DNA of 64,000 nucleotides, taken from assembly GCA_964016885.1 (NCBI GenBank), contig OZ024746.1, forward strand, positions 49,848,001-49,912,000, read 5' to 3'. A program made the position numbers and the translations under genes. The notes under the pieces were generated by a model. That model saw only the letters and a program-made list of their open reading frames with translations. It did no database searches and had not been told where the DNA came from. Source of the DNA: Eledone cirrhosa. Taxonomy: Eukaryota. Of this stretch, positions 986-64,000 are shown piece after piece (position 1 is the stretch's first letter; the number at the start of each line of letters is the position of its first letter).

Positions 986-1016
<31 letters not shown>

Positions 1017-1018
<2 letters not shown>

Positions 1019-2942
1019 ACTCTGATACTGGTTCAGTCTGGTTCAAACTGAATTGGTCTGTCCCAGTCATTCATTGAGCAACATCGGTGAAGTTGGCACC
1101 CTTAACTCACAGTTGGGTGCGGATGCATTCATGTATATATGTGTGTGTCCGCGTGTATCTGTGTGTTTCTAAATATATTAATAACTCCCTCTGGTCGAGC
1201 AATCTTTGAAGTGTGGGGACAACTGGAAAGCTTCCATTACTCATACTTCTCGCCTTCTTCACTACCTCTTCTGCGGCCTCGATGTGAATACCCCCTCCGC
1301 CTCCGTGGTATTTTCTTCGTGGTTATAAGAGGCTTAGCTCTGTTTCTCGACCGTTGTATCGCGTGACTATCTCCCCCTCCGCCTTTTGGGATTCTTTCTC
1401 ACGTCGTGTAGACGCGTTCTTGAGACTAGTAAAATGAGGTATCCTCTTGATAAGTCGGCAGACCTCGCAAGGACTCTATATCTTTGATATATTGTTTTTG
1501 TTTATGCCACGAAACTACGTAGTCGAGGAATTTAGGAACAGTTTAGGTATGATACATTTTATTACTAATTATATCTAAATGTTTCTTCTCTCTTCATAAT
1601 GTATTTTTAACTCTGATACTGGTTCAGTCTGGTTCAAACTGAATTGGTCTGTCCCAGTCATTCATTGAGCAACATCGGTGAAGTTGGCACCCTTAACTCA
1701 CAGTTGGGTGCGGATGCATTCATGTATATATGTGTGTGTCCGCGTGTATCTGTGTGTTTCTAAATATATTAATAACTCCCTCTGGTCGAGCAATCTTTGA
1801 AGTGTGGGGACAACTGGAAAGCTTCCATTACTCATACTTCTCGCCTTCTTCACTACCTCTTCTGCGGCCTCGATGTGAATACCCCCTCCGCCTCCGTGGT
1901 ATTTTCTTCGTGGTTATAAGAGGCTTAGCTCTGTTTCTCGACCGTTGTATCGCGTGACTATCTCCCCCTCCGCCTTTTGGGATTCTTTCTCACGTCGTGT
2001 AGACGCGTTCTTGAGACTAGTAAAATGAGGTATCCTCTTGATAAGTCGGCAGACCTCGCAAGGACTCTATATCTTTGATATATTGTTTTTGTTTATGCCA
2101 CGAAACTACGTAGTCGAGGAATTTAGGAACAGTTTAGGTATGATACATTTTATTACTAATTATATCTAAATGTTTCTTCTCTCTTCATAATGTATTTTTA
2201 ACTCTGATACTGGTTCAGTCTGGTTCAAACTGAATTGGTCTGTCCCAGTCATTCATTGAGCAACATCGGTGAAGTTGGCACCCTTAACTCACAGTTGGGT
2301 GCGGATGCATTCATGTATATATGTGTGTGTCCGCGTGTATCTGTGTGTTTCTAAATATATTAATAACTCCCTCTGGTCGAGCAATCTTTGAAGTGTGGGG
2401 ACAACTGGAAAGCTTCCATTACTCATACTTCTCGCCTTCTTCACTACCTCTTCTGCGGCCTCGATGTGAATACCCCCTCCGCCTCCGTGGTATTTTCTTC
2501 GTGGTTATAAGAGGCTTAGCTCTGTTTCTCGACCGTTGTATCGCGTGACTATCTCCCCCTCCGCCTTTTGGGATTCTTTCTCACGTCGTGTAGACGCGTT
2601 CTTGAGACTAGTAAAATGAGGTATCCTCTTGATAAGTCGGCAGACCTCGCAAGGACTCTATATCTTTGATATATTGTTTTTGTTTATGCCACGAAACTAC
2701 GTAGTCGAGGAATTTAGGAACAGTTTAGGTATGATACATTTTATTACTAATTATATCTAAATGTTTCTTCTCTCTTCATAATGTATTTTTAACTCTGATA
2801 CTGGTTCAGTCTGGTTCAAACTGAATTGGTCTGTCCCAGTCATTCATTGAGCAACATCGGTGAAGTTGGCACCCTTAACTCACAGTTGGGTGCGGATGCA
2901 TTCATGTATATATGTGTGTGTCCGCGTGTATCTGTGTGTTTC

Positions 2943-2950
<8 letters not shown>
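1017..2950 (+). repeat. 591-bp tandem array, about 3.3 units that appear identical, one hammerhead per unit; retrozyme/pLTR-like
   Basis: Identical ORFs at 1139, 1730 and 2321 (period 591); a fourth partial unit ends at about 2950; (TA)n on both flanks. Confidence 0.95.
1442..1529 (+). ncRNA. Type I hammerhead ribozyme, U3-A8 core variant (copies at 2033-2120 and 2624-2711)
   Basis: Stem I UCCUC/GAGGA; core UUGAUAA; stem II GU(C)GGCA/UGCCAC with about 44-nt loop; GAAA; palindromic stem III ACUACGUAGU; GUC triplet, predicted cut after 1524. Confidence 0.8.
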
Positions 2951-5629: not shown

Positions 5630-5669
5630 TCACTGATGATATCACAGGTGTGTGACGAAAGAACTCTGA
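5630..5669 (+). ncRNA. Minimal type I hammerhead candidate
   Basis: UCA-CUGAUGA-ua-UCACA(ggug)UGUGA-c-GAAAGaaCUC-UGA; stem I only 3 bp, CUC triplet. Confidence 0.5.
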
Positions 5670-21960: not shown

Positions 21961-22286
21961 TGTGGCGACGTGGTTAGTCAGTCTAGTCACTACTTCTGAT
22001 CAGATCCGAGAATAGCCCTTAGAAGGACTCTTATCGCATACGGTCTGATCAGATCCGAAGATAGCCCTTAAAAGGACTGTTGTCGCATATAGCCCTTAAA
22101 AGAACTGTTGAGGATGTACAGACGAAAGCACAAGTTGAAAGGACGAAGCAAGGCGAGATGTAAATTCGATCAGCTATTTATTTTCACATGAAGCGACGAT
22201 ACGAGGTACAAGGCGTCTGTGAGTGACAAAGCGTGGCAGAGTAAAGGAACAACGATTCGCTAGCTGACTCTGCCAAATGTCGACCA
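21961..22286. other. Solo-LTR-like insert with internal about 48-bp tandem duplication
   Basis: Termini TGTGGCGAC...GTCGACCA (imperfect inverted, TG..CA); AATAAA on the minus strand at about 22177; no TSD found. Confidence 0.35.
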
Positions 22287-22526
22287 TTGCATACACTAAC
22301 TACTTCAAACTATCCCCTTGCACTATCTTCGTAAACTGCCGATGTTGTATTTTAACTTTAATTCTGTTTTAATTTTGTTTTAATATGATTTTAATTTTTG
22401 AATTTAAATTACCATGCAAAAATATTATAATGGATGTCACCCCGCTGTGCATCGATATATACGTATGTTTCTGTATGTCTCTTGTGTTGGAAAGGAGGTC
22501 ATGAATGTATACAAACATTAAATAAT

Positions 22527-22571
22527 GCTCCGAAGACTCCAAACTTCGGTTTGGACGAAACAATTGTAAGC
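22527..22571 (+). ncRNA. Minimal type I hammerhead in pLTR, CCGAAGA (U4C) core; identical copy at 26760-26804
   Basis: GCU-CCGAAGA-c-UCCAAAC(UUCG)GUUUGGA-c-GAA-ACAAUUGU-A-AGC; palindromic stem III, GUA triplet. Confidence 0.75.
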
Positions 22572-22846
22572 TAATAAATGGTTTGAACAGAACTTTGATT
22601 CATGTGATTTCTATATAACTGCTCTGTAGAACAACTGATGTTATTACATTGAGCTATTTATCTTACTGGTAATAAGGTAGTAATAAATTACTGTCTTTAA
22701 CTGTTTCGGGTTTAAAATATATATAACTATAGAAAGTTTTAGTATATACATAACCATAAATAGTATCCTTAATACTATTAACTGCTCCATACTGTTGAGC
22801 TGACATACAATAAATTACCAGTATTCTGATCAAAGACCAACTCCCT

Positions 22847-25280
22847 ATGTCAACCAAGAACATACCAATACCATCCAACAATACATATGAGAAATTATTG
22901 ATCGACAGTGTAAACTCCTTTATCAATAGAGTGAGATGGAGGACATTCCATTATGATAAAAACAAATCTAACAAGGTTAATAATACTAACAAATTCGACT
23001 CCTTCGGCCTTAAAACCTTTAGAAGCTCCCCTCACAACACACTATTAAACTCCTTTGAAAATGACTGAATAAAACTAGTTAAGAACATTAAATACAAAAA
23101 GCACCGTAATAAAAACAACACATTCTTAAACAAACTTAACACCTCTATTAATAAATTCAAAACTAGTAATAAAATTATTGTACATGCGGACAAAACTAAT
23201 AACATATACAGCCTAGATTATAATACATACAGAAACTTTATATATAATGAACTACATAAAAGCTACAAGAAAACTATTATGAAAAACTTGGAAGATATTA
23301 ATATGGAAGGCTATAATATAGTGTCCAATCTAGGACTTCAGAGACATACACAACCATATACCCCAAGCCCCCCTAGATTTCTCTGAAGGACCATAAGGAG
23401 GACTTCATTAGCAACCCCTCGATTAGACTTATCTGCCCTTCCAAGTCTGACATTGGCATTATCAGTAAGAAAATTTTAGATAAAATCATCCCACAGATTA
23501 AACACAAGATATACCTTAAACAGTGGGGAAATACGGGTGAAGTTATTGAATGGTTCAAAGATATCAAGGATAACAAGGATAAAAATGTATTCAATTTGAT
23601 ATCAATTCATACTACTCCTCTATTTCCCCTATCCTATTAAATAAGGCACTAATCATGGCCATGAACAATAGTGACCTGACTAGACCCCAGATTGATGTCA
23701 TACTTGCGGCCCGTAAAACCGTAATCACCTCTGAAGACCAATTATGGACCCGCAAGGGTACGCAAAACAACTTCGACATAACCATGGGATCTAGTGACTC
23801 GGCTCAGGTCACTGATTTGGTCGGCCTATATTTACTTAACGAAATCCATAAGGACCTTCCATACCTCAACGGTGGTTTGTACCGCGATGATGCACTTCTA
23901 CTTATAGACTATAAAAAATTCAATATAGTAAGAACTAGAAAACTATTGCACAAGACTTTCAAAAACTATAACCTTAGTATCACCATAGACAAAAAAACTA
24001 AAAACGTTAACTTCCTAGACGCCACCCTCTACCTAGACTCAAGGATATATACACCTTTCCATAAACCTAACGAAAAACTGACTTACGTAGATACCAAGTC
24101 TAACCACCCTAGATCAATATTAAACTCTATCTCTAAGGGAGTATCCAATAGAATCTCTAATCTATCCTATGACATAAACATATTTAGCAAAAACTCGCAA
24201 TATTATAATCAGGCATTAGCTAGATCAGGCCATAATATAGAGATCGAGTTCCTACCTACAAAAACACATAGCTACAACATTATTTCGTACAATATGTCCA
24301 TGAGGAAAATTAGTATAAGAATAGCAACCACACACACACTAATACGAAGGATGCCAACAAACGTAACCGGCACCACGGAAGTTACCATAATACCATAAAA
24401 AGAAACAACTCACCAGACATAAAAAACAAAAATAGAAGAAGAAATAATACATTTTTCAACCCTCCTTTCAATCTAAACGTCTCTACCAACCTACCTAAGG
24501 CTTTCGTCTCACTCCTAGATAAAAACTTCCCATCTGGCCACAAGTACCATAGCCTTTTAAACAAAAACACAATTAAAATCTCCTACTCTACTACGCCTAA
24601 CATAGCATACCACATAGCTAGTAGCAATAAAAGAAAAATTAATTCTTACTTCCAACAAACTAAATCACAACAGGCGGTAAAACCTTCAAAATAACATTAT
24701 ATCAACTAACCATGATAACAATAGTAATAGTAGTAATATCACTAGTGTAAGCAATAACGCTGGGAACGACAACCCCCATAACCATAATCCTACAGCTACC
24801 ATCCAGACATCTACACAACATAATAACAGGCAGACTAACATCCAGAATAATTGTAACTGTAGATCTAATAGAACCTGCCCTTTAGATAAAAAATGCTTAA
24901 CCAAGGATATCATATACTCATGCACCGTCAAAACTAGCAACTCTTCTGAAACCTATATAGGCTCTACTTCAAACTGCTTCAAAACCAGATACAATTCGCA
25001 CCTCCATTCTTTCAAAAAACACAGTCTCGCCAACTCCACTTCACTATCTAGCTACATACACTATCTAAAAACTAAAAATAAATCTTAAACACTTAAATGG
25101 GAAGTGATAGGTAAGGCGACATCGTACAAACCACCTAATAAATTTCGTAACCTCTGTCTACAAGAGACCCATACTACTATCTTCTCAAACCATAACCTCC
25201 TTAATAAAAAATCAGAAGTGTTCGCGTCATGCTAGCACCGCTTCCGAGACTCCTTCCAAAACTTTAAACCCAATATATAG
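22847..25280 (+). pseudogene. PLE RT plus GIY-YIG polyprotein, disrupted by stops and frameshifts
   Basis: MSTKNIPIP, ADKTNN, FDITMGSSDSAQV, GGLYRDD, VNFLD, SNHP, FFNPPF, SYSTTPN, CNCRSNRTCPL, IIYSC...YIGST...FKTR, LLNKKSE. Confidence 0.9.
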
Positions 25281-27005
25281 CAACGTCAGACTTGAACCCA
25301 TCACCACTTCTAGCAACACACCTCAAGGGCACAACTTACACCACAACTCCACACTCAATAATACACCCTATCTTAACACAATTAGTGACATCTATCTAAA
25401 ACCTTTTACCCTAGAAATATCCCCATGTACATCTAAACTTTTAGTATAATTGCATTCAATTACTTAGACTACATTATACCACTATATAATTATATGTAAA
25501 CTTTAAACACTGAATTATTTGTGCTAATATTGTTCTGTGTATGGAGTGCTATCATTGGATAAATAGAAGATTAATTTATTAACATAAAAGAGCTATATAA
25601 CCTATATGTTGAGTACAATGAATTATGTACAAGTGGTATATGAGTTATACATACATGTATGACTTGATAGACAGATTAATGACATTGTAAGTGAGAATTG
25701 CTCTTTGGTCTACCCTAGAGATATTTAACTTTGCCATGCAATCAGCCATGCGCTGACCCAGAGCTTAGCAGGGGTTATATATAGACGTGGTTCTAATAAG
25801 ACCCTGTCAGGTGCTGTTAGTGGACTACATTTCCAAAGATCATTGATATGGAGATCTGACTCTTCATGTGGAATATTCAGTTGTAGCACTCTATGATGGG
25901 GGGTAATCATCCTAATATGGATACCTTTAGTACTTTTTGATAGAGTAGACTGTAATTTAAAGATAAGATACTTAAATTTAGAAACTGTTTATAACCATAT
26001 ATATAAGGGACTCAATTGGGACACCTTTTAATGTACATTGGAATAATAAATTTAGTTATAGAAATCAGCTAGTTACCTCCCCTCACTCATTAACTCCCCT
26101 TAATCACACAGATACTTCCGGAAAATAAAACGATGTAAATTCTCGCAACAAAAACAACCTGCTCTATAAAATTGGATTAAAGTACACTGAACCGCAACAA
26201 GCTGTAATAATCTAACCTAATACATCAAACATCCAATACTGAATCATCGTTAATTATGTGAAGGACATATAATCTATATATTACGTTTCCTGGATTGTGA
26301 AAATGGTGGTGTATACAAAAACCATAACATTATTTTGCTTCTCATTTTTAATATTTCTCTGCACACAAGCTTCTTTATCATACATAAAAAAATACTTTAC
26401 CAATACAACCCCCATAATACTCTTGATTACCCGCTTAAAGTGCTTGTATTGCATATAACACCTTGCCGCACAATAATCTTATATAAATAAGACACACGTG
26501 CATGCCCCACGTGTAACTATTGCATACACTAACTACTTCAAACTATCCCCTTGCACTATCTTCGTAAACTGCGGATGTTGTATTTTAACTTTAATTCTGT
26601 TTTAATTTTGTTTTAATATAATTTTAATTTTTGAATTTAAATTGCCATGCAAAAATATTATAATGGATGTCACCCCACTGTGCATCGATATATACGTATG
26701 TTTCTGTATGTCTCTTGTGTTGGAAAGGAGGTCATGAATGTATACAAACATTAAATAATGCTCCGAAGACTCCAAACTTCGGTTTGGACGAAACAATTGT
26801 AAGCTAATAAATGGTTTGAACAGAACTTTGATTCATGTGATTTCTATATAACTGCTCTGTAGAACAACTGATGTTATTACATTGAGCTATGTATCTTACT
26901 GGTAATAAGGTAGTAATAAATTACTGTCTTTCACTGTTTAGGGTTTAAAATATATATAACTATAAAAAGTTTTAGTATATTCATAACCATAAATAGTATC
27001 CTTAA

Positions 27006-27039
<34 letters not shown>

Positions 27040-27045
<6 letters not shown>

Positions 27046-29840: not shown

Positions 29841-31790
29841 AATAACAATAACAATTATTATAATTATTGTTATAGGAAAGAGAAAAAGAAACAAGAATAT
29901 TAAAAACAAAACAAACAAAAAAGTTAAAATAAAAACAAAATCAAACAAACCCAACATGTGATGTGTACAGTGCAAACACTGAACTGTATTCGTGTTTGAA
30001 TTTTTATTACTCCTCACGCAGTCATTGTCACAGGATCTCTACTCGAGTTATCCTGTTTGATAGATCAAACAAGACACTGTCTACGTATCGTTGAACAGAT
30101 ACTACAGAAAATAAGAGACTAATACTATAAGAATACTCACTTAGATAAATTATCTTCTACTAAGTTCGGCAGAAAATTTCCACTTTGTAGAAATTATATA
30201 ACAAATATTTCTTTTCATTTCTATACACTTCACTTGACATTAAGAAATATTAGATTTGTGTGGTGATGAAAATATATCGAAAACATATTGTCGTCTCCTT
30301 CTACGATGAATTGTTTCTTGAAGACATTTACTTCCTCTATGAAGTGGTTGAAAAGCAGAACTATAGCAAAGTAGCTGTTAATTTCTATTAGTTTATTGAC
30401 GATTTATTCAAACTGAGAGTTAATGAATATTTCATTGCTAACTGAAAAATAACCAAGGCACTGGTGGAAGACAGTCGTTAGAGGCACAGCTAAGACTTTA
30501 TGCATGACTAGATTTGGAATTAACAGATTTCTGATAAAACCATCATCATAGTAGTGAATTATGGGGATTATGGGGAAGCCTCTATGGATTGGTTTAATCT
30601 GTTAGAACTAGCACCCAAATCTCCCTCCAATCTTAAAGATAAACAAAGATATCGTTGTCCTAGACATTCTAATTAAATAAGACGTGACGGTTATCACTTG
30701 AATGTCAGAACTGCTTAATATCGGAGGTGATTTGATATTTAACAACAATAACAAGATTTATTCAACGAGGAACTGATAGAAGTAGCAGTCCAATTTATTA
30801 CAAATCACAGGCTACTATTTAATGGAAGCACACATTAGATAATGTTACCATAAACAGTCATAAACAGATGGAATACTCACGATTGGCGTGCCTTTGATCA
30901 TAGGTCTGCTTGATTAAGAACATTTATTCACCGCAGGAGTCTTGATGTAGTCGCTCAGCTTAATAGAAATAGCAGCTAAATCTCCCTCAAACTACAACTT
31001 AACTACTTGAGAAAAGAGAAACATATTAGATAATGTAAAGCTAGATTTGCAATGGCCTTGAGAAGGATAGAATGGTAACAACTGGAACGTCTTTGATCTT
31101 AGGTTTCCCGAGTGTATTAAGCTTTAGCTGCCTAAGAGTTCATAGATACCATTCTCATGAAATACAACAGAGTTCAGTATCTGGTTATTTGGTGCCTTCA
31201 ACAGCTTCTACTTTGTTTCAAACATTTAGGTCAAGTGTCTGATATGAGTATAATTTCCTCCCTTCTCCACCTGTTTCCGAGTTCGTGAAAAAGATCATGT
31301 GTTGTTCATTTCTTCTTTTAATTTATTCATAAATTATACATTTAGCTGTAAATAGGTTGTTGTTGATCAAATCTATGACGAAAAGTGACCGAGCCATCAC
31401 CGTCTAGCCATTTTTCTGACGTCAAATCTATTGGACGTTAAACAATGTGTCATTTCTCCTTTTTTAAAACAGTGGTGTATGATTTGTGGGGAGTTTGGTT
31501 GCTGTTCCTAGCAGATAGAGCGAATGCATAGAAACTCAATGTTTCTATTGTTCACCGACGTAAGTCATTAAAGTCCTTGCAGAAAGGGCAACCGCTTCGT
31601 TTATTTGTAGTGCTAAATATTGTACAACTGCTCTCAAGAGTATAGCCAATTAGGTTACATTGGGGTAATGAATGAACCAATATTTAAATTATTATATCAT
31701 GTTTTATGCAGAGAACTTTAAAAAGCTGTTATGCATCTCGTACAATTTTATTTTTATTTCACACACACACACATTTATATATACACACAC

Positions 31791-31823
<33 letters not shown>

Positions 31824-31827
31824 ATTA

Positions 31828-34015
31828 ATACAATAACAGAGATAGTTTAAAGCTAAACTCTGACTGGTAACCATCTCACTCAACAAACATTAGGTTATAT
31901 TAAAATATAAACCCAATTTAAGTGTTTGGGGTGCTAACAATATGTATAATGTGAAAAAACCAGTTGTATTATTTTATGAGATATAATTAAATTTAAAGTA
32001 TATCTCTCTTTCCAAACAATTGTTTCATTATAAGTTTTCTACAAGTTTGGGAGAATGTTTCCAGTTTATGTAGAAGCCTAATATATATTCATGTAAGAAT
32101 ATATTTAGGTGGGCACTTATAAATCATCAGTGGAAGCCAGCTCGTTAAACATTGATATAAGAAAACAATTTCTTACCGCTGTCAAAAATCATGTCCGTAA
32201 AGTTGCTCTCTCTCACCTCGAATGACCGCCAAATTTGAAATTCCAGCAGTTTTTGACTGAGGAAGTATCATAGCGACACGAAGCGGGAAGGGGAGACAAC
32301 CCACGATCCACGAAATGAGGAAAAAAAATAATATACACGCGGGTTAATTAGTTTTTTTGAAAACATTATCAATCCAACGTGTTTAAGAACTCAATTGAAA
32401 ATAAAAAAAATAAATATATGCTTGTATAAATTACACACGCATATAGATATTTTCTTAGGCTAAATCAGAAGTTGTACCCAAATAAGAACCGCTTCTCATA
32501 ACCGCAGTAAATGCAGAAAGTTATGCTATAAAGGGCAAATGGGAATATAATTCTCCGGCCGAATTATTAAGAGTAAAATATAAAACACACGCGGGTTAAT
32601 TAGTTATTTCAAAACCAATATTAATTCCTCGTGTAAAGAACTCAATTAATAAAAGAAAATAAATACATATATGCATGTAATTATATACGTAGGCATATAT
32701 ATATATTTTCCTAGGCTAAAAAACAGAGAAGTTACAACCAAAAAAAGCCACAATATTTCACAACAGTAATAAATACGGAAAGTCAAATTCATAAGGTACC
32801 TGGAAATAAACACCTCTGGCCAATCAAGAGTAAATATTTAATACAATAACAGAGATAGTTTAAAGCTAAACTCTGACTGGTAACAATCTCACTCAACAAA
32901 CATTAGGTTATATTAAAATATAAACCCAATTTAAGTGTTTGGGGTGCTAACAATATGTATAATGTGAAAAAACCAGTTGTATTATTTTATGAGATATAAT
33001 TAAAGTTAAAGTATATCTCTCTTTCCAAACAATTGTTTCATTATAAGTTTTCTACAAGTTTGGGAGAATGTTTCCAGTTTATGTAGAAGCCTAATATATA
33101 TTCATGTAAGAATATATTTAGGTGGGCACCTATAAATCATCAGTGGAAGCCCGTTAAACATTGATATAAGAAAACAATTTCTTACCGCTGTCAAAAATCA
33201 TGTCCGTAAAGTTGCTCTCTCTCACCTCGAATGACCGCCAAATTTGAAATTCCAGCAGTTTTTGACTGAGGAAGTATCATAGCGACACGAAGCGGGAAGG
33301 GGAGACAACCCACGATCCACGAAATGAGGAAAAAAAATAATGTACACGCGGGTTAATTAGTTTTTTTGCTAACATTATCAATCCAACGTGTTTAAGAACT
33401 CAATTGAAAATAAAAAAATAAATATATGCTTGTATAAATTACACACGCATATAGATATTTTCTTAGGCTAAATCAGAAGTTGTACTCGAATAAGAACCGC
33501 TTCTCATAACCGCAGTAAATGCAGAAAGTTATGCTATAAAGGGCAAATGGGAATATAATTCTCCGGCCGAATTATTAAGAGTAAAATATAAAACACACGC
33601 GGGTTAATTAGTTATTTCAAAACCAATATTAATTCCTCGTGTAAAGAACTCAATTAATAAAAGAAAATAAATACATATATGCACAAAGAAAATAAATACA
33701 TATATACGTAGGCACATATATATATTTTCCTAGTTACAACCAAAAAAAGCCACAATATTTCACAACAGTAATAAATACGGAAAGTCAAATTCATAAGGTA
33801 CCTGGAAATAAACACCTCTGGCCAATCAAGAGTAAATATTTAATACAATAACATAGATAGTTTAAAGCTAAACTCTGACTGGTAACCATCTCACTCAACA
33901 AACATTAGGTTATATTAAAATATAAACCCAATTTAAGTGTTTGGGGTGCTAACAATATGTATAATGTGGAAAAACCAGTGGTATTATTTTATGAGATATA
34001 ATTAAAGTTAAAGTA
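31828..34015 (-). repeat. About 1.0-kb tandem array (about 2.2 units), non-coding, one hammerhead per unit
   Basis: TAATACAATAACAGAGATAGTTTAAAGCTAAACTCTGAC at about 31828, 32840 and 33841; (TA)n on both flanks; no ORF called within the array. Confidence 0.93.
32010..32135 (-). ncRNA. Type I hammerhead with canonical core and about 95-nt domain II (second copy 33023-33148)
   Basis: Stem I UUCCA/UGGAA; CUGAUGA; stem II UUAUAAGU/ACUUAUAA; GAA-ACAAUUGU-U with palindromic stem III and GUU triplet; copy 2 has an A>G change that keeps a G-U pair in stem II. Confidence 0.8.
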
Positions 34016-34032
34016 TATATATATATATATAT

Positions 34033-51931: not shown

Positions 51932-52170
51932 ATGTGTGTGTGTATACATGATGATGATGCTGACTGGTATAGTCAATGGAAACTATAGCCGGACACACAA
52001 CGCTAGGGATTGCGAGGCGAGCAGGGCATTGCTCAGCGGTGTCAATGCAAGGCGAACCACAGACACACAGCTGTAGCTTGCAAGGTGAGCTGTGCTTTAG
52101 CACAGCCATACCGAAGCAAGCTACCTTCTTCTACTAGACAAAACTAGAAACAAATTATTATTATTATTAT

Positions 52171-55100
52171 TACAGTTGCATTTATCTTGCTTTATGTTCA
52201 TATGAGTTATCACCAAGTCACAACCAGTGACCTCAAGAGACAACAAGGTCCGCCATGTTCAAGAAAGAACATACACACTCACACATGCATCTTTAGTGTT
52301 TAGACTTGTGATGTACTTATATTGACAGAATATTCCTTAGTATATGGGCAGTTCCCATTAGTACTATCTTTTGTATTTCTCCTATACCCGGGTTTCCTGG
52401 GATTTGCGACAAGTAATCATTAGACGCCTTAGGTATCATTCCCAGAGCGCCTACAACCACTGGTATTGTTTTAGTTCTCAATTTCCACATTTTTCTAATT
52501 TCTATCTCCAGGTCCTTATACTTGCTCAATTTTTCAAATGTTTTTATAGATACATTCTTGTCTATTGGAACGGACATATCAATTAGCAGGCATACCCTCT
52601 TTTTAAAGTCCTTCAATATTATATCAGGTCTATTTGCATCTATTTTTCTGTCTGTTTGGATGCTAAAGTTCCACAAGATTGAGATGTGATCTTTTGCAAG
52701 TATGGGAGGTGGTTGATGCTCCCACCAATTCTTTTGATGGGGCAGGTCAAAATGCTTACACATTATCCAATGTATGTATTGTGCAGCTCTGTCATGCCTG
52801 TTTAGGTATTCGGTTGGAGCTATAGGACTGCACATTGAAATTATATGGTCAATGGTCTCTGGTTGTTTTTTGCATACACGGCATAATGGGCTGCATCCAT
52901 TTTTTATTATGTTGGCTTGGTAATTTTTTGTTGGCAGACACTGATCTTGTGCTGATATAATCAGTCCTTCAGTCTCCGATTTCAGTCCAGAGATGCCAAC
53001 CATTGATGGGTTAAAGTTTTGTCAACATCAGGATTGTTAGCTCGTTCTGGGTATTTTCCATACATAGTCTTTTCTTGCCATTTCTTAGCCAGTTTCTGTA
53101 GCAGTTCTTTCTTTGCAGTTACTTTTACCTGCTTTGCTTTTTCTGTGTTTTCCATTTCAGCAGTAAATGGGACTTCTGAAATTTGTAGTCCATTACTGTA
53201 TCTTTGTCCAACTTTTGTAATGGAATATGATCTTTTGATGCTTTCGTGTTTCAAAACGAGTTTGATCATCCAATCATGTGATTCCCTTAGATATGTAGAT
53301 AATCCAATTGTTGCAGTTTTCAACGCAATGTCTAACTGGATTAACCCAGGTCCTCCTTCTTTCCTAGGGAGATATATTCTATCTGTATCTGCCTTAGGGT
53401 GATGAATTCTGTGCATGGTTAAGAATTTTCGAATTTTTGTATCGAGCCTACGGATCTCTGTGCTTGACCAGTTGATGACATTGTAACTGTAGGTTACTAC
53501 TGGTATGGCAAGCGTGTTTATGGCATCGATCCTATTCCTTGCATTCAATTTCGTTCTTAAGATTGCACTTACTCTGCGGTAACATTCCTTCCTTATCCTT
53601 TCCCTCATTGTCGAGTGCTTGATTCCGTCTCCTTCACAAACACCTAGATATTTGTAAGTTTCCTCTTGATCAAGTTCTCTTATCACATTCCCCCGATCAA
53701 GATTAATGTCTGAACTCTTCAGCAGCTTTCCTCTGGTGAACGTTGCTTTGGCGCATTTATCTAGTCCAAACTCCATTTTAATGTCATCACTGAACTGCTC
53801 CACAGTGGATTGCAATTGTTCATCATTTTTTGCAAATAATTTCAGGTCATCCATGTAGAACAAGTGATTAATGGTTTTGTCATAGACTTTATATCCATGT
53901 TTTGTTTCATTGAGCATTTTACTTAATGGTATAAGTGCGATGCAGAATAAAAGCGGTGATAAAGAGTCACCCTGAAAAATTCCACAATTAATATTAACTT
54001 CTCCAGCTTCCAGTGATTTTGTTTCACTATTCAAAAGGAGTGTCGTTTTCCATGTCTTCATACTGAATGACAAAAACCCCCTGACAGCGGGGGATATTTT
54101 GAAAATCTCTAAACATTTTTCAACCGAACTGTGTGGCAAATTATCGAATGCTTTTTTTATAATCTATCCAAGCAATTGATAGAATTTTGTTTCTATTATG
54201 ACAATCTTCCAGTATCATTTTGTTAACCAACAGCTGATCCTTACAGCTCTATGAGCCTCGTCTACACCCTTTCTGCTCAATGGGAAATAGGTCATTTGTT
54301 ATCAGGTGGTCATATGTATATTCAGTTAGGACTGATGTTAAAATGTTATACATTGTGGTCAAGCAAGTTATCGGTCTGTAATTTTGGGGATTTTTTGTCT
54401 CATCTTTCTTCGGAAGCAGGAATGTAATGTCATTAACTAGCCATGATGGTATCTTTTCTTGCTCCTTAAATATTTCATTGTAAATTTGGGCTAACAGCTC
54501 ATGAAACTCTGTGAAGGCATTTATCCAAAAATTTTGCCTCAAGGACTTCTTTATTATCTTCCCTTGGCCATTTTTCTCTCTTTTTCTTTGGATTTCTTGG
54601 TGGTGAGCATGGAGAGCCAACAGTAGGAGTATTCCGGTTAAGGAAGGTCTCCAGCTCCGAGGTGATGGGAAGGTTTGAACCATTAGCTGATTTTTCGACC
54701 CCAGTCTGGTTGCTCTCTGAGGGACGCGGCCCTTTTTTACCCGGGTGACGGCCGATCCGGTATGAGATTTTATCATTAGACATTTACTTTATTTCGTCGC
54801 GTTTTATCCTTATCCTCCAAGGGGTAATCATTTCGTGTTACCACTTCTAGAACGAGTGTCAACCAAGACTAGAGGGGTCGTTCTCCCCTAGAGACACGGC
54901 TATTCCCCGCCGGCCGCCATCCCGGTATTTCTTGGTCACGGGGTTTTCTTTTTTGTTGTTTTTTTAAATTGTTATTATCATGAGTGGTTCCTTAATGTGA
55001 GCATTGCGTGGCTTAAGAATGAAATTATTAATAATTGTTTCCACTCCAGGCACAAGGCCAGCAATTACCCAGTGCATTACAATAATATATTATACTTTTT

Positions 55101-55535
55101 GCTGAAGTTGCCTGTTATTGTTGTTGGCTATGTCGGTAGTGGTGCTGGGGCTTTTTATATTGTTGGTGGGGAAGAGGGGAGCCAGCAGTGCCATAGTTGT
55201 TGACGTTTGGCCGGTGGCCGGGTCACTAAGTCAATCTATTTATATCTTTTGCTAGCCTCTTCCTTGTCTAGTTATACCGCCACCTTCCCCTTTCTTAAGT
55301 TAACAGAGGAATAGTGGTGGTAGCAATGAAGGAGTGGTGGCGGCGGTGATGGGATAGTGGTAGCAATGATGGATGGAGTGGTGGCGGCGGTGGCGTTGTC
55401 GTTACTGAGTTTTGTTGAATAGACTGTAGTTTTATTTGATCTGTAGTATCTATGCGTTTGTGTCGCGTATGTTTAATATATGTGTTGACACATTACTTTA
55501 ATATTGGAATTAAACATGTTAAAACTTGAGACAAT
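52171..55535 (-). mobile_element. R4/Dong-like family B copy with 5' region, internal deletion at about 54535 and frameshifts
   Basis: ORFs 54499-54783, 54249-54776, 52982-54139 and 52317-53003: YRPITCL, GIFQGDSLSP, YMDD, CRVC...HIISMC, RHD, NRPDIILKD; (TTA)n on both flanks. Confidence 0.93.
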
Positions 55536-55956: not shown

Positions 55957-58900
55957 GGGAAGAAGACGCACGGAATAAGGGAAGAAGACGCACGAGGTGA
56001 CGGAGGTCATGAAATCGCTCCCGTAAGTTTTGAATTTTTAACATATTTAAACCATTTGTGAAATAACAACTCTTAGTACAAATGCTACGTAAAGCACCCG
56101 GCTTGAGCCCCAAAAAATTCGGACCCAAAATATATTGTTATAAGGCTCAAATATTCAAATATTCAACTTTGTATTGTACACTGTATATCCAAAAAAGAAA
56201 ATGGCTATAAATGGAAGAAGAACCCCCCCCCCTCCTCCTCTGTATACACTATATAGAACAGCCAAACTCACCAACACCAGAAACTAGATACACCACCCAC
56301 CCTATCACCTGTGTACACTAAACCACCACCGATCACTACGGCCATCATTACAACCATTATCCCATCACCGCCGCCACCACCCCTTCACTCCTTCACTGCT
56401 GCCACCGCTACAGCACCATCGCTACAGTAATACGGTCACATCACCGCCACCACTGTCTCGGTATCGACATCACCACCACCACTGTCTCAGTATCGCTACC
56501 GCCGCCAGTCTCCCACTTCTTCTTTTAGCTGGCTGCTGCCACCACATTATAGAATCCCTACTGCTAAAAAAGAGGAAGGCATCAAAATATATAGATAGAC
56601 TCAAAAGAAAAAAGAAAAAATAAACAACAAAAGCAGCACAGCAACAACAGTAAAAAACGAGAAAAACAGAGAAAAACAAAAACAAAAAAAGAAACCCCCA
56701 AAACGTAAAGAAAATAAGAATGAAGAGAGAGGCAGGCGGACGGACAGAGAAGAGGGGGGAAAAAGTAAAACTTAAAAAACAAAAACTAAGTCAGACATTC
56801 GAATACTACATTACAATGAAACTTATGCTTATTCATTTTTGGGGCCCTTTCTGCCCGTGTGTTTGTTTGTTTATGTGTGTCCGTATACAGCGTGGTGATA
56901 ATGCCACACAAGGGCCAAGTGGGATGGCGGATCCACAGATGGCTATGTAAACATACATTCGCCAATCCTCGATAAGAGTGTTTAAATATCGAACATAAAC
57001 AGTTCGAATAACGGTGAAATGGAGACTAGAACGTCATGTGACAGACTCTCACCCAACAGGTGCCCCCTGGCTCAGCAGCAGGAACCTGACTGTCAACGAA
57101 ATACTGCTGATGTTGGAGGAAGAAGAAGAAGGAAAGGGGCCAGAACCAACTGGACGAAAGAATTGAATAGAACTGTTATGCAATGCTACCTGAAAAGTAA
57201 CCCCAAGGAGAGGGGCTACAGGAGACGGATGCATAACATCTGGAACGAGATTGGTTTATTTAAATTAGATGAACAAAAATTGGCCGGGCAGGCTCGGGTA
57301 ATAAGAACTAATGGGTGGATAAGCGAGCTGGAACTGGAGGAACTGAGCAGAGAGAATGGCTTGGAGATGGCGGGTGTAGTATGCCAGACAAGCGAGCCGG
57401 CGGGAAATGAAGGTGAGGAGGTCCTGAGAGCGGAGGAACCACCCGAAGCAGACAATGATCTGAATACTGAGATAAATAATACCTGGAACAGAGATACGGC
57501 CACTGAGGAGATGAATGCTGACGGGCTAGGACAAGATTCGGTTGACATCCTAAATTTAGTGGTAGATGAGTTGAACAATGATAGTGGGAGACCTATGAAC
57601 CTAAGATTTGTAGACAGGAAAAAGTTAAAAGAAACAACAGCTAAGGTAAACAAAGTCATCCCATACCTTGAGGCGAGGAGTCTTCACCAGTGCAACAATA
57701 TCCTCAAAGCAACAGCAAATACGGTGAGGAAACTACTTGGTATAAAAGCGAGAGGAAACAACAGACAAGAAAGAGCAGAGCCGTGGTGGAAGAAGCGACT
57801 GAGTGGGCAAATCGGGGAAATGAGAAATGACATAGGAAAGCTTGAGTCACTACTGAATGGGACACTAAAAAACATAGGCACTAAAAATAGACTGGAAATA
57901 AAATACAAAACTAGGAGTAAAAAGCTAAATATTATCATAGAGGAATTGAAGCAACGCATTGTAGCAAAGAGTGCCAAAATCAGGCGATACGAGAACAGAG
58001 TCAGTCAGTATAAACAGAACCGCATGTTCGACAACAACCAGAAGATGCTGTTTGGACAGCTTGAGGGGAAAGAAAGAGGCACCGACTTGATCCCTGGGGC
58101 GGAACAAGCTAAAACATTCTGGAGAGGAATATGGGAGCAGGATGTTAGACACAATGCCCAGGCAGGGTGGATTGAGACAGTACAGAGGGAGATCGGTGAG
58201 CAGGCACAGCAACAGACTGATTTGAGTATCACAGTTGAAACTCTTAAGGGGCAAGCCAAAAAACTAACCAACTGGAAATCACCAGGCCCAGATGGTGTGC
58301 AGGGGTATTGGATTAAACATTTAACATCCCTCCACCCGAAGCTGACGGCCATGTTCAATGACTGCTTGGTGTCGGGTGAGGTGCCAGAGTGGTTGACAAA
58401 AGGTACCACAGTTCTGATAATGAAAGACCGAATCAAGGGTAATGATGTTACCAACTATAGACCTATCACATGTCTGCCCGTAATGTGGAAACTGTTGACG
58501 AGCATTGTGTCTGAGGAAATCTACCATCACCTCCACACAAACAACTTGTTGCCGGACGAACAGAAAGGATGCCGAAAGAAGTCACGTGGTACAAAGGACC
58601 AGTTGCTTATTGATAAGATGGTAATGGGGAATTGCAGGAGGAGACACACTGATCTTGCCATGGGATGGATAGACTACAGAAAGGCATTTGACATGGTGCC
58701 TCATTCCTGGATCACCAAAAGCCTGGAGATCTTCAGGGTGGCAGATAACATCAGAGAGTTGCTGGGCAGGAGTATGGGGTCCTGGGAGACAGAGTTGACA
58801 TCAACTGGAGTATCCTTGGGAAGCGTGAAGATCAAGAGAGGTATCTTCCAGGGAGATAGCCTGTCCCCTCTGTTGTTTGTCCTTGCCCTGATGCCCTTGA

Positions 58901-60490
58901 CCATTATGCTGCGAAAAGTGAGAGCAGGATACAAGTTGGGAAGGGGAGAGCTTACCATCAATCACCTCCTCTTCATGGACGATCTTAAGCTCTTCGGGAA
59001 AAGTGAGAAGGAGTTGGATGTGCTTGTTGACACTGTCCGTATTTTCAGCAGTGATATATGTATGCAGTTTGGTATTGGTAAATGTGGAGTCATTGTGATG
59101 AGGAGGGGTAGGTTGAGCAGAAGTAACGGGATCCAGATACCAACAGGTGAGATGATAAAGGAAATTGACTCTGAGGAAGGATACAAGTATTTGGGCGTTC
59201 TGGAGGCTGATGGCATAAAGAACAAAAAAATGAAGGAATTGTTAAGAACTGAATACATTCGGAGAGTAAGGAGCGTATTGAAGTCACATCTGAACAGCAG
59301 AAATGCCATAAGCGCAGTAAATTCCCGAGCTGTGTCTATTATTAGGTACAGTGCGGGAATTCTGAGATGGAATGTTGCTGAACAAAAAGAAATGGATAGG
59401 AAGACTAGGAAGCTATTGACTATCTACAACATGTTCCACAAGAGGAGTGATGTCGATAGACTCTACCTAAGGAGATCTGAGGGTGGAAGAGGTCTTATCA
59501 GCATAGAGGACTGTGTTCAGATGGAGAAAAACAACCTATACAAATACGTGACCTATAGTAAGGAGCCAATGCTCAGAGCTGTACTGAAGGAGGGGAGAGT
59601 AGGCCAGGGGATACCCAAGGAGGAAATAACATCAAGGAGGAAGAGCAGCCTTAAGGGAAAATCCCTTCATAGTACCTTCTTTGAGAAAACTGAATTTAGA
59701 GATCCACAGACATGGAACTGGTTGAGAAGAGGAGACCTCAAAAAGGCTACAGAAGGAATGCTAATGGCTGCGCAGGAGCAGGCCCTCAAAACGAAGTGGT
59801 TGAAGCACCATATCTACAAGGAGGAGGCTAGCCCACTGTGCAGGATCTGTGGAGAGAGAGAGAGGAGACTGTGGCTCACATTGTGTCCGAGTGTAAACAC
59901 CTAGCCCAGACCCACTATAAGGGCTGGAGACACGATGTGATGGGCAGGGTGATCCACTGGCACCTGTGCAAAGTAAACAATCTACCACATTCTGAGAAAT
60001 GGTATGAGCATAGGCCAGAGGCGGTGATGGAGAACAGTCAGGTGAAGGTGCTGTGGGATTTTAGGATACAGACGGACAAAAAACTGGAACACAATAGACC
60101 TGACCTGGTGGTTGTGGACAAAGAAAAAAGATCGTGCCTGATTGTGGATGTGGCCTGCCCGTTCGACACGAGAGTGCAAGAGAAGGAGAGGGAGAAAATT
60201 AACCGATACCAGGACCTAAAGTGGGAGGTGAAAAGGATTTGGAACTGCCATGAAGTCAAAGTGATCCCGATTGTCATAGGCGCACTGGGGACTATCTCCA
60301 AAGGTTTCCAGGGATGGTTAAAGAAAATCGGCCCCTTCACGCTTTTTGGAACGCTTCAAAAGGCATGCTTGCTTGGAACGGCAAGAACCCTCCGATACGT
60401 CCTGAATATCTGAGGCTGCAGGTAGTGGCTTGATATTCAATCCAACGGACTTTCCAGTTAACCAACATCAATGACTGAGATTCAAGGAAT
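55957..60490 (+). mobile_element. Probably full-length R4/Dong-like non-LTR retrotransposon family A between (TAA)n tracts (5' boundary inferred)
   Basis: Single long RT-REL ORF, short 3' UTR, (TAA)n tail; about 1.06-kb leader begins right after the upstream (TAA)n. Confidence 0.8.
57019..60413 (+). CDS. RT plus CCHC knuckle plus restriction-like endonuclease polyprotein, single frameshift in a (GA)n run at about 59850-59866
   Basis: 961-aa and 191-aa ORFs: WKSPGPDG, YRPITCL, IDYRKAFDMVPH, GIFQGDSLSP, FMDD, GGRGL, CRICG...HIVSEC, RHD, RPDLVVVD...D, KINRY. Confidence 0.93.
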
Positions 60491-60522
60491 AACAATAACA
60501 ATAATAATAATAATAATAATAA

Positions 60523-60860
60523 TTGGAGATAGAAATTGGAAAAATGTGGAAATTGAGAACTAAAACAATACCAGTGGTTGTAGGCGCTCTGGGAATGATA
60601 CCTAAGGGGTCTAACGATTACTTATCGCAAATCCCAGGAAACCCGTGTATAGGAGAAATACAAAAGATAGTACTAATGGGAACTGCTCATATACTAAGGA
60701 AGATTCTGTCAATATAGGTACATCACAAGTCTAAACACTAAAGATGCATGTGTCAGTATGTATGTTCTTTCTTGAACATGGCGGAACTTGTTGTCTCTTG
60801 AGGTCACTGGTTGTGACTTGGTGATAATTCGTATGAACATAAAGCAAGATAAATGCAACT

Positions 60861-60862
<2 letters not shown>
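60523..60862 (+). mobile_element. 3' fragment of family B in (TAA)n
   Basis: EIEIGKMWKL...AHILRKILSI plus 3' UTR; (TAA)n on both flanks. Confidence 0.92.
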
Positions 60863-62391
<1,529 letters not shown>

Positions 62392-62443
62392 AAGAAGAAG
62401 AAGAAGAAGAAGAAGAAGAAGAAGAAGAAGAAGAAGAAGAAGA

Positions 62444-62830
62444 AGAAGACGCACGTGGTGGTAGAAGGTCATGAAATTGCTCCCGTAAGTTTTTGATTTT
62501 TAACATATTTAAATCAATTGTGAAATAACAATTCTTAGTACAAATGATGCATAAATCACCGAATCAAGTCTCATAAAAATTCGGATCCATAATATATTGT
62601 TATATCGCTCAAATATTCAATTTTGTATTATATATTTTATATTCAAAAAAGAAAATGGTTATAAATGGAAGAAAACCCCTCTGTCTACACTATATAGAAC
62701 AGACAAATAACAGCAATTTCACCGACACCAGAAACTTGATACACCACCTACCCCATCACCCCGCTGTGTACACTAAATATAACAGCCAGATAACGGCAAT
62801 TTCACCACCACCACCACCAATCCCAGCATC
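62444..62830 (+). repeat. Diverged copy of the family A leader (about 55980-56350)
   Basis: GAAGACGCACG...GGTCATGAAAT.GCTCCCGTAAGTTTT...TTGTGAAATAACA..TCTTAGTACAAATG shared; follows (TAA)n(GAA)n. Confidence 0.8.
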
Positions 62831-62851
62831 ATAATAATAATTACTATTATT

Positions 62852-64000
62852 ATTGTCTCAAGTTTTAACAAAATGATTAATTCCAATATTAAAGTAATAT
62901 GTCAACACATATATTAAACATACGCGACACAAACGCATAGATACTACAGATCAAACAAAACTAGTCTATTCGACAAAACTCAGTAACGACAACGCCACCG
63001 CCACCACCACACCATCCATCATTGCTACCACTATCCCATCACCGCCGCCACCACTCCTTCATTGCTACCACCACTATTCCCCTGTTAACTTAAGAAAGGG
63101 GAATGTGTCGGTATCACTAGACAAGGGAGAGGCTAGCAAAAGATATAAATAGATTGACTTAGTGACCCGGCCACCGGCCAAACGTCAACAACTATGGCAC
63201 TGCTGGCTCCCCTCTTCCCCACCAACAATATAAAAAGCCCCAGCACCAACACTGACATAGCCAACAACAATAACAGGCAACTTCAGCAAAAAGTATATTA
63301 TATTATTGTAATGCACTGGGTGATTGCTGGCCTTGTGCCTGGAGTGGAGACAATTATCAATAATTTCATTCTTAAGCCACGCAATGCTCACATTAAGGAA
63401 CCACTCATGATAATAACAATTTAAAAAAACAACAAAAAAGAAAACCCCGTGACCAAGAAATACCGGAATTGCGGCCGGCGGGGAATAGCCGTGTCTCTAG
63501 GGGAGAACGACCCCTCTAGTCTTGGTTGACACTCGTTCTAGAAGTGGTAACACGAAATGATTACCCCTTGGCGGATAAGGATAAAACGCGACAAAATAAA
63601 GTAAATGTCTAATGATAAAATCTCATACCGGATCGGCCGTCACCCGGGTAAAAAAGGGCCGCGTCCCTTAGAGAGGAACCAGACTGGGATCGAAAAATCA
63701 GCTAATGGTTCAAACCTTCCCATCACCTCGGAGCTGGAGACCTCCCATAACCGGAATACTCCTACTGTTGGCCCTCCATGCTCATCACCAAGAAATCCAA
63801 AGAAAAAGAGAGAAAAATGGTCAAGGGAAGATAATAAAGAAGTCCTTGAGACTTTCTACACTGCCATGTACTACCCATCAAATACATCGAATACAGAACA
63901 GACATATATCAACTGGAAAATGAAACATCCCGAAAACAGAGGCTATATTGACAGTAACAAACTAGCCAATATACGAAGAAATATTGTAAAAAAAAGTTAC
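62852..64000 (+). mobile_element. 5' region and ORF start (ATG at 63605, open to the window end) of another family B copy
   Basis: 62852 to about 63850 is the reverse complement of about 54538-55535; MSNDKISYRIGRHPGKK...KWSREDNKEVLETFY...NKLANIRRNIVKK. Confidence 0.9.

Follow-up and report, generated by a model that had tools for sequence, protein, structure and literature searches.

The tandem array at positions 31827-34018 of the window (the whole 64,000-nucleotide stretch analysed, positions 49848001-49912000 in the 3.0-Gb genome of Eledone cirrhosa) is probably one insertion of a non-coding mobile family that carries a hammerhead ribozyme, that is, a large non-LTR retrozyme, likely copied in trans into (TA)n by a Hydra-clade Penelope-like reverse transcriptase from RNA that would be cut by the ribozyme and partly closed into 1-kb circles. 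The dispersal of the family, its fixed 3' end, its TA targets, the lack of an ORF, the conserved ribozyme structure and the positions of the 5' ends are findings of the analysis. In the relevant sections of earlier work, the role of the hammerhead in Penelope elements and the rolling-circle model of retrozymes are presented as open or hypothetical (PMC8557442, PMC4209133, PMC7229834, bioRxiv 10.64898/2026.07.22.740005). A young family of about a thousand copies, here called the 1.0-kb family after the array in the window (labels such as L205 denote individual genomic copies), offers a genomic record of precise positions, in the form of one fixed start and of stops that fall at the predicted cut or after what would be one lap, together with a candidate protein that has a near-full ORF.

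The original prediction of about 2.2 units of about 1.0 kb, lying between (TA)n tracts and free of ORFs, was borne out, as the array holds 2.17 units and its longest ATG ORF and longest stop-to-stop frame measure 48 and 63 aa. All units read on the minus strand. The fixed end of the insertion abuts a (TA)n target tract (31776-31826), and a TA-rich left flank was present in 30 of 30 loci. Unit 1 (31827-32839, 1013 bp) has at its left end the fixed RNA 3' end of the family, where reverse transcription presumably starts. Unit 2 (32840-33841, 1002 bp) carries two indels private to the window copy, a deletion of 17 bp and an insertion of 12 bp, and a partial third unit (33842-34018, 177 bp), which stops 11 nt before the third predicted ribozyme cut position, reaches a second (TA)n tract (34014-34031) at the 5'-truncated end. 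The units had been described as diverged, which holds in so far as units 1 and 2 are 95.5% identical; however, 35 of the 36 differing columns are private to the window copy and one is common to other copies, so the differences are almost all private mutations. An internal diverged duplication, also anticipated, was found at 32323-32839 (about 255 bp; copies 32323-32589 and 32575-32839, with about 70% identity). In older subfamilies (72-85% identity) the unit measures 730 bp and the copies likewise loop back to the unit start; the 1.0-kb unit derives from this older unit through the internal duplication.

The GC content of the 1.0-kb family is below 50%. Folded as a minus-strand circle, the unit reaches -237 kcal/mol, compared with -195 +/- 7 for 12 shuffles and -193 for the opposite strand. 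Contigs of three sequencing runs (kind unrecorded) showed only family-wide variation when compared with the array and have no bearing on expression. A block at 32227-32246 is 97% conserved across the older subfamilies, in which neighbouring windows reach 36-68%, and may be a promoter element. Its assignment as a possible cell-cycle promoter element is a weak lead, for TTTGAA and a reversed TGGCGG are present but lack the order and the 4-nt spacing given for CDE/CHR (PMC5716687).

When the unit was used in a DNA search, 2220 candidates were obtained, 40 of which were scored, and the best matches all began at unit position 1. The terminus motif had 1,007 exact matches genome-wide and the hammerhead motif 1,065, while the reversed control gave none in either case. 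The proposal of a dispersed, (TA)n-targeted, ribozyme-bearing non-coding repeat was correct. In all copies read, the fixed end is the 3' side of the RNA and lies in TA, 188 nt downstream of the predicted cut, and the opposite end varies, with (TA)3 within 20 nt of 100 of 124 variable ends. The expectation of copies with permuted ends was therefore not upheld, since only the 5' end varies. No LTR pattern was seen in 30 loci, and for a second initiation site (a tail) one terminus only was observed, with a search pattern blind to a distant second terminus. One copy shows an apparent template switch from the 1.0-kb family into another hammerhead family, accompanied by an inverted duplication (L218), and internal deletions of 190-420 nt occur in several copies, the loci concerned being L218:408-900, L147, L150 and L224.

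Both full units carry a type I hammerhead on the minus strand. The first (32011-32134) comprises stem I (32134-32131/32014-32011), CUGAUGA (32130-32124), domain II (32123-32027), GAAA (32026-32023) and a palindromic stem III; its predicted cut lies 3' of U17 at 32015, and it has a private 4-nt insertion within the loop-I strand. In the second (33024-33152), CUGAUGA is at 33143-33137 and GAAA at 33039-33036, with the predicted cut 3' of U17 at 33028. A canonical minus-strand hammerhead had been proposed for each full unit; type, strand and presence in both units are as proposed, but the ribozyme departs from the canonical form in its U10.1-U11.1 mismatch, its GUU cut triplet and its 3-bp palindromic stem III, and stem I has 4 bp. 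Domain II is 97 nt long, and its closing stem consists of 8 pairs and a U-U mismatch; the 79 nt inside the closing stem agree with the length first estimated for stem II, but they form two hairpins (32037-32109, minus strand), making a branched domain, and not the one nested hairpin that had been described. At the gathering score Rfam gave no match in the 64-kb window, and its failure with a branched domain II of 97 nt suggests that counts of hammerheads in Penelope repeats by descriptor searches are too low.

The 146-nt hammerhead region folds with a z of -3.0, with none of 200 shuffles as good; in the minimum-energy folds of the monomer the active ribozyme core is absent. For the covariation test 27 diverse sequences were picked from 132 distinct copies and 22 were aligned, the five left out being three truncated on the 5' side, one with a deletion and unit 1 of the window. 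In these 22 copies the hammerhead structure pairs in 94.9% of 916 cells (0 of 500 shuffles as high), five pairs have double changes (a number reached in 1 of 500 shuffles) and the covariation score was not reached in any of 500 shuffles; slid controls pair in 33-50%, and kinship among the sequences is liable to inflate these controls. The stem III palindrome is changed from AATT to GATC in 3 of the 22 copies, and the diverged copy L189 carries the canonical G10.1-C11.1 and GUC. The ribozyme is thus conserved in its structure, with its branched domain II backed by compensatory changes. A possible pseudoknot between loop I and domain II, in which GGGC at 33152-33149 could pair with GCCC at 33127-33124 of hammerhead 2, is conserved in the 22-copy alignment, where covariation for it is absent. 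Hammerheads with a short palindromic helix III are described as functioning as dimers and as cleaving weakly (PMC4209133), and 8 of 9 Xenopus retrozymes were reported to be inactive in vitro (Li et al., bioRxiv 10.64898/2026.07.22.740005).

The positions of the variable 5' ends were compared in an unbiased set of 78 insertions, taken from the first 100 terminus-motif matches listed, all on one contig (C1). Internal junctions, 11 rows of identical end and flank (some of them duplicated or inverted copies counted once), and L149 (the same insertion as L148) were removed, and seven loci (L131, L142, L185, L197, L199, L202 and L213) gave no row. In this set 61 of 78 insertions end before one unit. 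With end hazards stratified by TA microhomology and the widths of the pile-up windows set after inspection of the data, 12 of 69 insertions at risk ended at unit positions 160-188, where 2.8 were expected (p 4e-5), and none at 189-216, where 2.2 were expected. The end of one insertion (L203) falls precisely at 188, where the predicted 3' cleavage product has its first base. On the second pass, the corresponding pre-cut positions account for 5 of 26 insertions against 1.05 expected, and the window array likewise stops just short of a predicted cut. A second accumulation lies at one unit (-6 to +25), with 13 of the 46 full-unit copies pooled from all searches against 2.5 expected (p 2e-6), or 4 of 17 against 1.0 (p 0.016) in the unbiased set alone. 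Further pile-ups at 631-660 on the first pass (8 against 1.2) and at 1202-1260 on the second (9 against 1.3) are equally strong and were not predicted, which means that pile-ups can have other causes; the one at 631-660 is possibly a transcription start. Judged from these genomic end positions, the pile-up at the cut likely reflects a linear cut monomer as template and the one-unit pile-up a circular monomer.

These positions are consistent with a scheme in which a Hydra protein, for which family F described below is the best candidate, would nick (TA)n and begin to reverse-transcribe at an internal site of the RNA, 188 nt downstream of the cut. With a linear cut monomer as template, the reverse transcriptase would run off at the cut, giving ends at 160-188. 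On a circle it would pass the junction and often halt after one lap at its own start, giving one-unit ends, and continued copying might produce arrays such as that in the window. Sometimes the other DNA strand may be primed on a second RNA, the unspliced pre-tRNA-Lys(UUU), giving head-to-head fusions.

Units within the same insertion agree at a common A/T site, site 76 (alleles 106:52), with 0 of 31 pairs discordant, and the differences between units within insertions are mostly private (168, compared with 23 shared). The lack of discordance at site 76 points to one template lineage and excludes a heterogeneous multimer, or switching between different RNAs, as the origin of two units; a circle and a homogeneous linear multimer are not separated by it. 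Another explanation, which we consider unlikely but to be taken seriously, is that the same non-autonomous Penelope passenger is copied only from linear, partly uncut multimers, with no circle, and that the one-unit stops are caused by a second protein that occupies the next start site. Uncut RNA was the main substrate of the Anolis element in the in vitro work described (PMC11167929), the 631-660 pile-up might mark a start of transcription, of which a linear model makes direct use, and homogeneity within insertions also fits a homogeneous source array. However, a product of 2.17 units requires a longer source array, and no three consecutive units occur among the first 100 terminus matches listed, with just 1 of 46 full-unit copies exceeding two units. 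Repeated 5' truncation would moreover shorten arrays without a way for them to regrow, and a sister family with a 591-bp unit has dispersed, 99%-identical arrays of up to about 7 units.

That the copies are ordinary tandem pLTRs of an autonomous Penelope, whose ORF-bearing copies were missed by sampling, is in our judgment very improbable, even though the fixed 3' end, TA targeting, 5' truncation and inverted head-to-head copies (L205 and L218) are Penelope hallmarks and about 124 insertions were read of roughly 1,000-2,000. Of the flanks at 124 variable ends, 111 of them 1 kb or longer, none passes directly, with no TA run between, into a Penelope ORF of the same sense; such an ORF lies nearby in 9 of 124, each beyond a TA run, which is short in L214. 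The check for an attached PLE ORF that accompanied the original prediction therefore gave no pLTR tied to an ORF. All 46 full-unit copies stop or return to the unit start, and the older 730-bp subfamilies loop back as well. Four loci that were considered as ORF-linked copies (L118, L120, L063 and L130) proved to have inserted into, or next to, TA ends that belong to other elements. As for satellite DNA made by local unequal crossing-over and carrying a fossil ribozyme, head-to-tail units would fit it, and some retrozyme arrays were amplified locally according to a proposal of Li et al. (bioRxiv 10.64898/2026.07.22.740005), but copies across many contigs, most shorter than one unit and with one fixed end in TA, refute this reading, whose probability we put close to nil.

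Trans-copying by a Hydra-clade protein is the reading that we prefer. The genome is rich in Penelope elements: a single RT query gave 41,210 candidates, many of which have open frames of 832 aa. At its fixed end the 1.0-kb family aligns to the terminus of a family here termed F over about 55 nt (32826-32881, minus strand, in the window), scoring 54 against 14 +/- 4.3 for shuffles with 0 of 2000 as high, family F having been selected after the likeness had been noticed. In 1.6 Mb of loci the F terminus scores 42 and other endonuclease-linked termini at most 22, anything higher being the 1.0-kb family's own copies. Beyond these 55 nt there is no likeness to F (whole-region local score 56, shuffle mean 54). 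Family F is young (2740 candidates, top matches 98%) and in many loci has an RT with a C-terminal endonuclease upstream on the same strand. Its 713-aa ORF has DKT, a CxCX5C linker, CxxC and CxH in the endonuclease, as well as GIY-YIG at the C terminus, and the target is (TA)n; Pfam gave no match for this ORF, which has 444 unnamed homologues. Since DKT, CxCX5C, CxxC and CxH are given as defining the Hydra clade, for which (TA)n targeting is reported (PMC8557442), F appears by its motifs to belong to this clade. Non-autonomous relatives are described as resembling their autonomous partners at the 3' end (PMC8557442), and F is the best candidate partner protein for the 1.0-kb family. No canonical hammerhead with the palindromic stem III motif, the one form covered by the search, was tied to F termini in 10 loci. 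In L253, L254 and L231, F has a 90-nt tail and no canonical hammerhead was seen, though hammerheads are reported to be universal in Hydra elements. The window's own Penelope element (22283-27009) was rejected as the partner, with a terminus score of 14 and no significant similarity in the region.

By the features that were tested, the 1.0-kb family appears to fit the animal non-LTR retrozymes and not a new class, and these retrozymes have already been proposed to be non-autonomous Penelope derivatives (PMC7229834; bioRxiv 10.64898/2026.07.22.740005). As described in the same two sources, retrozymes share with it non-coding, low-GC, head-to-tail units, a type I hammerhead whose palindromic helix III is short, co-occurrence with Penelope and proposed circular intermediates, and the U-U mismatch at the base of helix II recalls the axolotl HHR_Amex2. 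The unit of 1002-1013 bp differs from the 150-450 bp (PMC7229834) or 51-972 bp (bioRxiv 10.64898/2026.07.22.740005) given for retrozymes; the older 730-bp unit falls inside the latter range and the young unit just above it. The branched 97-nt domain II and the dispersed, mostly sub-unit insertions with one fixed end also set the family apart, and, as far as those descriptions go, mapped ends at the cut and after one lap, as well as the pre-tRNA fusions, are peculiar to it. With Hydra-clade Penelope-like elements, as described in PMC8557442, it shares (TA)n targeting, a hammerhead near the 3' end, a fixed 3' end and 5' truncation, but it is without an ORF or a detected tail and in its body shows no relation to F. 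Non-autonomous Chlamys elements such as MRC1 (PMC8557442) likewise have head-to-tail insertions and are like their autonomous families at the 3' end only; those, however, belong to the Chlamys clade of green algae and are mostly described without canonical hammerheads.

A biochemical account exists for PAc, a Poseidon element of Anolis, whose protein in vitro initiates internally, downstream of the hammerhead, at an AT-rich target, and for which cleavage and extension of both strands by a predicted dimer are described (PMC11167929). PAc differs in being autonomous. In the in vitro experiments presented by Frangieh et al. (PMC11167929) its hammerhead was dispensable for insertion and no reads ended at the cut, whereas genomic 5' ends of the 1.0-kb family pile up at the predicted cut.

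In three sampled insertions the truncated end is joined, without TA, to an inverted, full, intron-containing tRNA-Lys(UUU), which keeps a few leader bases and whose trailer runs into TA. An intron-spanning 28-mer had 7 matches genome-wide, of which two are genes in a tRNA cluster, four are fusions and one is a solo copy. A DNA search with the tRNA (121 candidates, 40 scored, 30 loci read) gave a fifth fusion with a different source gene, and three retrocopies unfused to the family (L281, L283 and L286), none of them ending in TA. The 3' end of tRNA-Lys(UUU) followed by TA occurs at six distinct places genome-wide, and all six belong to intron-bearing precursors fused head-to-head to the 1.0-kb family, with the proviso that exact patterns detect young copies only and could miss older fusions to other families. 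The six fusions lie at six different unit positions and draw on three source genes, which rules out one chimeric master. A neighbouring intron-containing tRNA with a UAU anticodon gave no fusions in 30 loci, and in 25 loci of the 591-bp family there was no tRNA. The intron-containing tRNA-Lys(UUU) gene clusters (L222, L273-L302) have a C-U mismatch in the predicted T-stem and are interleaved with intron-containing UAU-anticodon genes.

The pre-tRNA was rejected as a primer because its 5' end faces the element, which has no complement (PBS) to the 3' end of tRNA-Lys(UUU), the sole tRNA compared. Overall pairing of the pre-tRNA with the element RNA reaches -69.4 kcal/mol, with a shuffle mean of -67.4, and so gave no sign of general complementarity. 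An 8-nt complement to the T arm in the duplicated motif, resembling HIV PAS/anti-PAS as described (PMC3675109), was set aside as a weak lead, being near chance and in a motif that varies in older subfamilies.

The geometry of the fusions suggests that a single TA break had its two DNA strands primed on two different RNAs, which would fit the Anolis protein in its activity on both strands and its predicted dimer (PMC11167929). That an unspliced tRNA-Lys is co-inserted with this family in particular points to a link, of RNA-RNA or RNP type, between the retrozyme and tRNA processing. Since RtcB circularises cut retrozyme monomers in vitro (PMC7229834), one may conjecture that the retrozyme RNA is tethered to intron-containing pre-tRNA-Lys(UUU) and so reaches the tRNA-splicing ligase that circularises its hammerhead-cut ends, and that a Hydra protein acting as a dimer reverse-transcribes the two RNAs together on both strands of a single TA cut. 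We regard this proposal as speculative and rather improbable, the tether and the role of the ligase being conjectural. If it were true, Penelope passengers that bear a tRNA could also arise through co-insertion of this kind. In the literature outside subscription journals and Repbase, no paper among those listed was a description of octopus hammerhead/Penelope repeats of this kind, of pre-tRNA with Penelope or twin priming, of a multibranch stem II or of tRNA-bearing non-autonomous Penelope elements.

The array had also been taken to indicate, together with the 591-bp array (window 1008-2946), a recurrent class of large (TA)n-targeted ribozyme repeats. The two arrays are unrelated in sequence, as had been supposed (best E 0.84, no significant similarity), and the architecture does recur, a domain II of 58-93 nt being found in several unrelated families among the loci examined, with examples in L003, L091, L147 and L150; but this is Penelope biology and no new class. 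The 591-bp array has a plus-strand hammerhead with U3-A8 replacing C3-G8, and its family is very young and dispersed (743 candidates, 40 scored), with two termini and inverted arrays. A further family (L118, L125, L264 and L114) has a hammerhead with an 81-nt domain II in its terminal repeat, and at 2 of 12 sites a GIY-YIG remnant lies about 0.9 kb upstream on the same strand.

Several other elements were seen in the window. A broken Hydra-type Penelope with two pLTRs (22283-27041), whose relatives with 832-aa open frames are abundant, carries a short hammerhead with a CCGAAGA core (U4C) and ends on its 3' side 208 nt past the predicted cut; other families, too, have CCGA cores. At 1-517 a 113/232-bp tandem repeat with a minus-strand CTGATGA in each unit directly follows a GIY-YIG fragment (493-948). 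Short hammerhead cores of other Penelope families lie at 5633, 8551/8556, 17533 and 51345, one pair being inverted. Finally, RT frames of non-LTR retrotransposons, one of 972 aa at 56986-59904, and large inverted copies lie at 52154-55425 and 56986-63850.
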